A stretch of DNA of 64,000 nucleotides. It comes from Escherichia coli (lineage in GTDB: Bacteria; Pseudomonadota; Gammaproteobacteria; Enterobacterales; Enterobacteriaceae). The notes beneath the pieces were generated by a model, which worked only from the letters and a program-made list of their open reading frames with translations, was not told the origin of the DNA and did no database searches. The DNA is taken from assembly GCF_003334405.1 (NCBI RefSeq), contig NZ_QOWM01000010.1; one strand, 5' to 3'. Positions 55,152 through 55,766 of this stretch are shown one piece after another (position 1 is the first letter of the stretch; the number at the start of each line of letters is the position of its first letter). The translations under genes and the position numbers were made by a program.

Positions 55152-55766
55152 GATTGTCTGCTCCCCTGTCTTGTTATGGGAGCAGTATTCAGGAATAAAA
55201 ACATTCATTAAAAGAATTAGTCGTTATCGCACAGATGATTTTATTCTTAGCAAAAAAACGGCTAAGGAAAGATTAAATATGCAATTACTCCGTTCTAACA
55301 ATTGGGAAAATTACTACACTTCATTTTAGTGATGCATAAACAACCACATTACGAGATTTATTACTTCATTATTTCTATCAATATCAATACATATAATAAA
55401 ACTATTATATTCGCATTGTATATATCACTGTATCATTCTCAATCACTCGCATATTACATTCACATAATGTATATAAACAATGCTTGTTCACAGAACATAT
55501 TTTTTAAATGCAATTAATTGACAAACTAAATCACATCTAAATACAATGTATAAAACAAAATAACTATACATACCAAACATACAAACACTTAACATATGAA
55601 TTGCATAGAAACATTACCCAGTCGAACCCACGGGTCTGAAAGCCCTTGCTTTTCAGTTATTAGCAACATTTAACATTTATAAATTAACATCTGGCTGCGC
55701 CAGAGATTACGTCTCTGAGTGCATCGTTGTGCTTGTAGTATAATAAATAAAATGGAGTGTCATTAA

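Follow-up and report, generated by a model that had tools for sequence, protein, structure and literature searches.

Gene arrangement and base composition of the tauA/yaiS spacer

The window, a stretch of 64,000 nucleotides of Escherichia coli DNA (contig NZ_QOWM01000010.1), contains a 615-bp spacer between two divergent genes. The ATG of tauA lies at position 55151 on the minus strand and the GTG of yaiS at position 55767, giving exactly the gap that an initial annotation, made from the sequence alone, had claimed. As that annotation also had it, the spacer separates the tau operon from the yaiSPXO cluster, lying exactly between tauA and yaiS.

55152-55766, no strand: divergent tauA/yaiS spacer, 615 bp, 30.4% GC
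55767-58978, plus strand: yaiS-yaiP-yaiX-yaiO cassette, encoding a PIG-L deacetylase, a GT2 glycosyltransferase, a hexapeptide acyltransferase and the YaiO outer-membrane barrel

The spacer is 100% identical to that of E. coli K-12 MG1655. The window differs from MG1655 within the cassette, where yaiS reads CAG at 56322 in place of the MG1655 amber codon and yaiX is not split by IS2. A search of a phage collection gave no match to the spacer, and matches to nominal plasmids were discounted, as these records are 1-5-Mb E. coli sequences of chromosome size.

The GC content of the spacer (30.4%) falls to 24.9% in its core (55300-55620), compared to 51.2% for the entire window. The lowest-GC segments of the window at lengths of 200, 300, 400 and 615 bp (22.0%, 24.0%, 25.5% and 29.6%) all fall in the spacer, followed closely at 300 bp by segments of two other spacers (50239-50538, 26.3%; 40208-40507, 26.7%). 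The description of the spacer as the most AT-rich stretch of the window therefore holds from 200 to 615 bp but fails at 100 bp, where 40399-40498 lies slightly below the spacer minimum (18% vs 20% GC). Other parts of the initial description were too strong. The core is 25% GC, not almost devoid of G and C, and its supposedly long A/T runs are unremarkable: the longest uninterrupted one in the spacer is 15 nt (55739-55753) against a window maximum of 16 nt, several runs of 15 nt occur in the window, and the spacer homopolymers are A7, T6 and A5. ACAT and TACA, noted as repeated motifs, number 10 and 6 in the core, matching a first-order composition model (z = 0.6 and −0.35). The core is skewed between strands (A136, T105, C58 and G22 on the plus strand), and we attribute the recurrence of these motifs to this asymmetry rather than to a repeat family. 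A repeat search of the spacer found no sizeable repeats, only short two-copy matches.

The tauA-proximal segment and the accessory yaiSPXO insert

55152-55189, minus strand: tauA leader, 38 bp adjoining the ATG, with a probable −10 element (AATACT) proposed from the sequence
55190-55288, minus strand: upstream activator region of tauA in its K-12-type haplotype, a predicted role; contains the dyad below
55246-55266: perfect dyad CTTAGC-N9-GCTAAG of the K-12-type haplotype

The tauA promoter is reportedly a sulfate-starvation promoter controlled by CysB and Cbl, and CysB is said to bind it at multiple sites. The Cbl footprint, reportedly spanning −112 to −68 from the start, would fall within 55190-55288.

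The 38 bp at the tauA ATG are identical in K-12-type strains and O157:H7 and nearly identical in B-lineage strains, B2, E. whittamii and E. albertii. Beyond them, 55190-55288 is 97-98% conserved among yaiS-bearing E. coli alleles, and conservation has a sharp edge at 55288. This interval exists as two haplotypes, one found in K-12, E. whittamii and E. fergusonii and the other in O157, B2 and E. albertii, which are 47-52% identical in a single gapless register. In an in-register ungapped test of their relatedness, 0 of 2,000 shuffles reached the observed score (z = 4.4-5.3). Both haplotypes are old. It is plausible that the part of the K-12-type tauA promoter to which activators bind was brought in, or exchanged by recombination, along with the yaiSPXO segment.

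The AT-rich core belongs to an accessory insert of ~3.9 kb that carries yaiSPXO and has its right end near 59062; the cassette has 47.8% GC, compared to 56% for the tau operon. Most of the spacer is carried by 4,255 of 5,426 complete E. coli genomes, with best matches in two main identity bands, at ≥95% (3,785 records, including short partial matches) and at 80-90% (1,039 records). In O157:H7 the same site is occupied by another island, encoding a response regulator, a sensor kinase, a UhpC-like transporter and an ABC transporter, and the O157:H7-type spacer is common to 451 genomes. In the B2 strain EC958 and in E. albertii, tauA is followed by a ~300-bp spacer with a REP-like element (recognized by eye) and then by frmR, with no AT-rich core; this arrangement is the empty site. 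B-lineage strains have lost the DNA from 55261 to yaiO through an IS1, which lies inside the putative activator dyad. Insertions of IS1 at this locus are repeated.

In E. fergusonii the cassette adjoins tauA with a different right flank, and in Citrobacter braakii and Superficieibacter yaiSPXO lies in unrelated genomic contexts. In both of these genera yaiS is immediately preceded by ~300 bp of 15-27% GC that are non-homologous to the E. coli core and gave only chance alignments of 27-33 nt with it. As yaiS is preceded by its own AT-rich stretch in other genera, and empty sites exist, the AT-richness belongs to the control region of yaiSPXO and not to that of tau. The cassette is decaying, with an amber stop in K-12 yaiS, IS2 in yaiX and truncated yaiS in other alleles.

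Promoter-like sites, H-NS binding and a conserved block on the yaiS side

55305-55613, no strand: promoter island '383994_309 yaiS(-)/tauA(+)' of Panyukov & Ozoline 2013, converted from U00096.2 coordinates
55408-55557, no strand: parent fragment 'P12' of Fuqua & Wagner 2024, an exact reverse-complement match
55415-55442, minus strand: promoter-like site TTGAGA-16-TACAAT facing tauA, proposed from SELEX as a constitutive promoter; inactive as P12-GFP
55497-55598, plus strand: conserved block found by alignment, comprising a T-tract/palindrome (CAATTAATTG), the −35 and −10 elements and the CA-rich first ~45 nt of the transcript
55500-55505, plus strand: H-NS motif TTTTTT, upstream of the −35 element
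55518-55547, plus strand: σ70 promoter TTGACA-18-TACAAT facing yaiS, mapped experimentally as P12-RFP and listed among the RpoD SELEX promoters
55527-55532, plus strand: H-NS motif TAAATC, within the promoter spacer
55701-55717, no strand: palindrome CAGAGA-ttacg-TCTCTG, beside the yaiS-proximal promoter-like site
55715-55769, plus strand: yaiS-proximal CTGAGT-18-TATAAT, predicted from sequence, with its −10 at 55739-55744
55754-55757, plus strand: putative yaiS Shine-Dalgarno sequence GGAG, ahead of the GTG at 55767

The initial view of the AT-rich core as an H-NS-bound regulatory region describes something real, is largely right and was already in print: the yaiS/tauA region is one entry among the 78 'promoter islands' catalogued by Panyukov & Ozoline (PLoS One 2013, PMC3661553), regions ≥300 bp long in which predicted transcription start points are extremely dense. 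We placed the island on the window by a coordinate conversion anchored on yaiS. Three horizontal-transfer predictors score it as foreign (PMC3661553). RNA polymerase binds the islands as a class and open complexes form on them, but they yield nearly no long RNA, with short oligonucleotides of 9-14 nt among the products; all of them are reported to bind polymerase in vivo.

A simple count of −35/−10 pairs found 11 promoter-like sites in 55305-55613, the window maximum; averaged over the window, there are 1.7 per 309 bp. Simulation under a first-order composition model predicts 13.3 ± 3.9 sites for the same interval, and a stricter promoter scan found 3 sites where 3.4 were expected. The crowd of promoter look-alikes is real and is a consequence of base composition; since the count equals the composition expectation, the property that defines the island is a by-product of AT-richness and not a selected feature.

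Binding of polymerase to the spacer is documented by genomic SELEX. The RpoD holoenzyme gives a peak in the yaiS/tauA spacer that carries an 'HNS' mark, and the authors name one promoter in each direction, TTGACA-18-TACAAT for yaiS and TTGAGA-16-TACAAT for tauABCD (Shimada et al. 2014, PMC3946193). Our consensus scan returns both hexamer pairs, at 55518-55547 on the plus strand and at 55442-55415 on the minus strand. The RpoS (σS) holoenzyme also gives a SELEX peak in the spacer (PMC5493296). In the single data set of in vivo TSSs that we consulted (Kim et al. 2012), no start falls within the spacer and the only one nearby is a 2-read start at 55133. The spacer thus has the site density, polymerase binding (from the published SELEX and abstract data), low in vivo transcription and association with acquired genes that characterize promoter islands. 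Published data support the initial reading, both for H-NS occupancy and for a crowd of promoter-like sites; the pattern that would have contradicted it, a spacer free of H-NS with one simple promoter per side, is not what they show.

The promoter facing yaiS matches the consensus hexamers at 11 of 12 positions and has been mapped on a plasmid reporter. The top (GFP) strand of P12 corresponds to the window minus strand, toward tauA, and its bottom (RFP) strand to the window plus strand, toward yaiS (PMC11661796). P12-RFP is an active promoter (Fuqua & Wagner, eLife 2024, PMC11661796), and P12-GFP, the strand facing tauA, is inactive as a promoter in this assay. Fluorescence from P12-RFP drops when the mapped −35 or −10 box is lost; scrambling them reduces output 62.6-fold (−35) and 49.7-fold (−10), and changing TACAAT to TATAAT raises it (PMC11661796). 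Transcription from this promoter would be expected to start near 55554, giving a yaiS leader of ~213 nt. Four Escherichia sequences retain the palindrome at 55701-55717, which E. fergusonii lacks.

RegulonDB lists a σ54-dependent yaiS promoter, according to PMC3118216. We found no match to TGGCAC-N5-TTGC at ≤3 mismatches within 55152-55766, and the nearest pattern, TGGCGCATCGCTTGCT at 55865-55880, lies inside the yaiS frame as now annotated.

The H-NS binding claimed for the spacer is supported by published data. The core is H-NS-bound in all ChIP-chip sets compared by Panyukov & Ozoline (Grainger, Kahramanoglou and Oshima; Table 1, column H = 'A', PMC3661553), the source from which, together with the SELEX 'HNS' mark (PMC3946193), we take in vivo occupancy second-hand. 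On the plasmid reporter, P12-RFP output rises modestly, by about 0.5-fold (to about 1.5×), in Δhns, and mutation of either TTTTTT at 55500-55505 or TAAATC at 55527-55532 alters it (PMC11661796). The high-affinity H-NS 10-mer TCGATAAATT is not enriched in the spacer, which contains two matches with 2 mismatches (55512-55521 and 55676-55685). Of the features expected for xenogeneic silencing, the spacer has the AT content but no enrichment of the high-affinity nucleation motif. We infer that H-NS silences the chromosomal yaiS operon, probably spreading into the low-GC cassette.

To describe conservation we used a five-way alignment of three E. coli alleles, E. whittamii and E. fergusonii, and expressed it as identity to the window sequence.

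55152-55288 (tauA-proximal 137 bp): E. coli alleles 97-98%, E. whittamii 88%, E. fergusonii 77%
55289-55496: E. coli alleles 75%, E. whittamii 77%, E. fergusonii 50%
55497-55598: E. coli alleles 94%, E. whittamii 95%, E. fergusonii 89%
55599-55735: E. coli alleles 78-80%, E. whittamii 83%, E. fergusonii 47%

The block at 55497-55598 ends at a conserved ATG (55596) and coincides with the experimentally mapped promoter and its H-NS motifs. The coincidence of 89-95% conservation with the mapped promoter indicates that purifying selection acts on the productive promoter, amid AT-rich DNA that is drifting.

Explanations for the spacer and comparison with known systems

The spacer is very probably composite, a CysB/Cbl-dependent tauA promoter joined to an H-NS-coated, look-alike-rich control region of yaiSPXO that contains one conserved σ70 promoter. 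On the tauA side, the ~140 bp of 55152-55288 would constitute the sulfate-starvation promoter of tauABCD, dependent on the LysR-type regulators CysB and Cbl. On the yaiS side, the DNA from ~55290 to 55766 would control the accessory yaiSPXO cassette. Within it, the −10 and −35 look-alikes that composition generates in 55305-55613 would attract RNA polymerase, and the same DNA would serve as a preferred binding platform for H-NS. One real, near-consensus σ70 promoter (55518-55547) would point at yaiS, kept by purifying selection, and H-NS on the core, probably spreading into the low-GC cassette, would hold transcription toward yaiS almost off. Published experiments show that polymerase and H-NS bind, map the promoter, demonstrate its repression by H-NS on a plasmid and find almost no in vivo starts; our own analysis contributes the base composition, the density of promoter-like sites, the pattern of conservation and the finding that the insert is accessory.

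Silencing could instead arise mainly from crowding of RNA polymerase, with overlapping sites trapping polymerases in abortive or interfering complexes and H-NS playing a secondary role ('excessive promoters as silencers'). The short oligonucleotides and few long RNAs of promoter islands as a class agree with this, as do the highest promoter-like density of the window, the rise of P12-RFP by only about 1.5× on loss of hns (PMC11661796) and, for the appY island, activating mutations that cut start points and left H-NS binding unchanged (PMC7054387). However, Fuqua & Wagner met no −10 or −35 boxes that repress by themselves, and both apparent cases in P12 were rescued in Δhns (PMC11661796), so these boxes acted through H-NS; the 150-bp core fragment is moreover already an active promoter on a plasmid despite its many boxes (PMC11661796). 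We regard crowding as an unlikely main cause. Rather less probable is that the AT-richness has no function and reflects neutral drift of non-coding DNA under AT-biased mutation, with protein binding incidental. Most of the spacer does diverge approximately neutrally (75-85% identity between E. coli alleles vs 95-98% for flanking genes), the sequence upstream of yaiS is not conserved between genera, and the promoter-like count is that expected from composition. Against this, yaiS is immediately preceded by AT-rich DNA in each of three unrelated genomic settings, and a 100-bp block is strongly conserved and holds a functional promoter and functional H-NS motifs (PMC11661796). A reading of the core as distal tauA regulatory DNA, supplying for example additional CysB sites, DNA bending or an UP-like element for sulfate-starvation control, would fit the multiple CysB sites reported for tauA and the assignment of TTGAGA-16-TACAAT to tauABCD by the SELEX authors (PMC3946193). 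We consider it very improbable. O157:H7, B2 and E. albertii have intact tauABCD with a ~300-bp spacer entirely without the core, B-lineage strains lack everything past 55261, conservation among yaiS-bearing alleles falls sharply past 55288, and the reporter showed no promoter activity from the core toward tauA (PMC11661796). As the core is absent from lineages that keep tauABCD, it is not part of the tau promoter.

The conserved block might also mark an unannotated gene, either a small RNA of ~100 nt, a leader with a short uORF (ATG at 55596) or a hydrophobic protein on the minus strand (55595-55488). The block runs ~45 nt beyond the promoter to the conserved ATG, from which a 25-codon frame is open in four Escherichia sequences; a 35-codon hydrophobic frame lies on the opposite strand, and weak hairpins followed by U-rich sequence occur ~85-100 nt downstream. 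The suggestion that the spacer could hide small RNAs nonetheless found no support in Rfam, in folding, in covariation or in the curated MG1655 annotation. An Rfam scan of 54800-56100 at E ≤ 10 gave no hit in the spacer and three chance matches outside it, the putative yaiS leader (237 nt) folds like its shuffles (z = −0.18), and an RNAalifold fold of the alignment has zero compensatory pairs among 46 predicted pairs. Folds of the individual species give only weak, inconsistent hairpins (z = −0.6 to −1.6). A pairing of ACACUU with the Shine-Dalgarno region was rejected, as it is broken and not compensated in E. fergusonii. No terminator-like site was found on the plus strand of the spacer, which thus offers neither a family match nor the combination of promoter, terminator and conserved structure that marks a small RNA gene. 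Candidate small proteins at 55596-55673 (plus) and 55595-55488 (minus) were likewise rejected: their frames are open in some alleles, but the peptides are not conserved, being frameshifted between alleles and unrelated in E. fergusonii. No Shine-Dalgarno sequence is visible by eye upstream of the ATGs at 55596 and 55595. In two alleles the minus-strand frame is cut short by a stop at codon 31 of its 35; the A-poor composition of that strand in itself favours open frames. The curated MG1655 record (NC_000913.3) annotates nothing between yaiS and tauA, and the TSS list has no start there. The initial judgment that the spacer holds no convincing ORF therefore stands, and a hidden gene seems improbable. 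We hold it similarly doubtful that the CA-rich ~45 nt ending in the AUG at 55596 form a regulatory leader, acting through a short uORF or as an RNA element at the 5′ end; translation of this leader, or termination by Rho inside the ~213 nt ahead of yaiS, would then determine yaiSPXO expression jointly with H-NS.

The composite reading places the locus among several known systems. The tauA-proximal ~140 bp would represent the class of CysB/Cbl sulfate-starvation promoters (tauA, ssuE), with a dyad where a LysR-type activator is expected; they account for only about a quarter of the spacer, and the AT-rich core lies outside them. H-NS is said to silence acquired AT-rich DNA, a process known as xenogeneic silencing. 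The locus resembles such cases in its low-GC accessory cassette, its H-NS-occupied upstream region of even lower GC and its decay in many strains; we know of no counter-silencer for yaiSPXO. The core is itself one of the promoter islands of E. coli (Shavkunov 2009; Panyukov & Ozoline 2013) and differs from the others in nothing categorical: it is rich in A and T and in predicted starts, binds both polymerase and H-NS, is nearly silent and adjoins genes scored as foreign. The yaiS strand is already active, unlike 40 of the 50 parent strands of Fuqua & Wagner (PMC11661796), and our alignment shows that the promoter of the yaiS island is additionally conserved across Escherichia species. The appY promoter island (Bykov et al. 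2020, PMC7054387) is an element of the same class, lying before a foreign gene, bound by H-NS and carrying excess promoters. It needed many rounds of mutagenesis for activation, whereas on a plasmid one near-consensus promoter already makes the yaiS island active.

The locus, its H-NS binding and a base-by-base map of its promoter had been published, and the details added here are incremental. The locus provides a clean worked example of a native activator-dependent promoter (tauA) beside the silenced control region of an acquired cassette. It also offers several handles on the evolution of H-NS-bound regions: the empty site of B2 and E. albertii, the different island of O157, a conserved promoter block within drifting AT-rich DNA, repeated IS1 insertions and two old haplotypes of the tauA activator region. 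The results bear on whether the B-lineage IS1 within the putative activator dyad alters taurine use.

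Sequence differences from MG1655 and elements within yaiS

The window sequence is K-12-like, yet distinct from MG1655. Its yaiS is intact, with CAG at 56322 where MG1655 carries the amber TAG codon that ends the annotated 185-aa YaiS; yaiX is an unbroken 236-aa ORF (57493-58203) that lacks the IS2 of MG1655, and yaiT is likewise intact, as a 968-aa ORF. Two elements lie within the yaiS frame:

55865-55880 (+), sigma54-like element TGGCGCATCGCTTGCT, 2 mismatches, ~100 bp into the yaiS reading frame
56304-56423 (-), ykiC, verified small-protein gene, 39 aa (MNYKAFTQ...)

In the window, where yaiS is intact, ykiC runs antisense to it inside the 3' portion of the frame; in MG1655 it is positioned immediately downstream of the yaiS amber stop. 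RegulonDB, as quoted in PMC3118216, places yaiS among sigma54-dependent promoters; this listing is probably a prediction made on an older, shorter gene model. The sole start assigned to yaiS in the TSS table of Kim et al. 2012 (55133, (+), 2 reads) lies 634 nt upstream of yaiS, antisense to tauA within its opening codons.

AT-rich spacers and promoter islands

Over 300 bp, the AT-rich runners-up in the window are 40208-40507 (26.7% GC) and 50239-50538 (26.3% GC), which, as assigned by ORF sizes, are the iraP/ddlA and yaiT/hemB spacers; both are divergent, like tauA/yaiS. The list of promoter islands that includes tauA/yaiS (Table 1 of PMC3661553) also contains cysB/ymiA and ssuE/elfA, ssuE being the other Cbl-dependent sulfonate operon. 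Three sulfur-starvation loci therefore adjoin promoter islands, which could be a coincidence.

The yaiSPXO cassette and tauA upstream haplotypes

The genes yaiS-yaiP-yaiX-yaiO (55767-58978) travel between genera as a four-gene cassette, seen also at comparison loci L013, L015 and L016. Their products are a cytoplasmic PIG-L deacetylase, a multi-pass GT2 glycosyltransferase, a hexapeptide acyltransferase and an outer-membrane barrel, a layout that is, speculatively, reminiscent of pgaABCD and other synthase-export modules for polysaccharides.

Two old haplotypes of the tauA activator region occur, ~50% identical in register (55190-55288 versus 5039-5140 of both L004 and L012, and L006, loci with the O157/B2/E. 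albertii-type sequence), with a breakpoint 38 bp upstream of the tauA ATG. Among the sequences examined, the K-12-type haplotype was found together with yaiSPXO every time. In genomes without any island, the tauA-frmR spacer (L012 5170-5235; L006) contains a REP-like palindrome, GCCTGATGTGACGCTCACGCCTCTTATCATGCCTAC, judged by eye, whose position is the site of alternative islands in other lineages.

IS1 insertions in the tauA/yaiS spacer

IS1 has entered the spacer in three independent events, in natural or laboratory lineages, at these sites:

55261, IS1 junction of the B lineage
55367-55375, IS1 site
55713-55721, IS1 site

Strains H32 and AF58 carry simple insertions with 9-bp duplications, and the B-lineage copy is accompanied by a deletion reaching yaiO. 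The B-lineage junction interrupts the dyad CTTAGC-N9-GCTAAG upstream of tauA, and because of this position tau regulation may be different in BL21-type strains.
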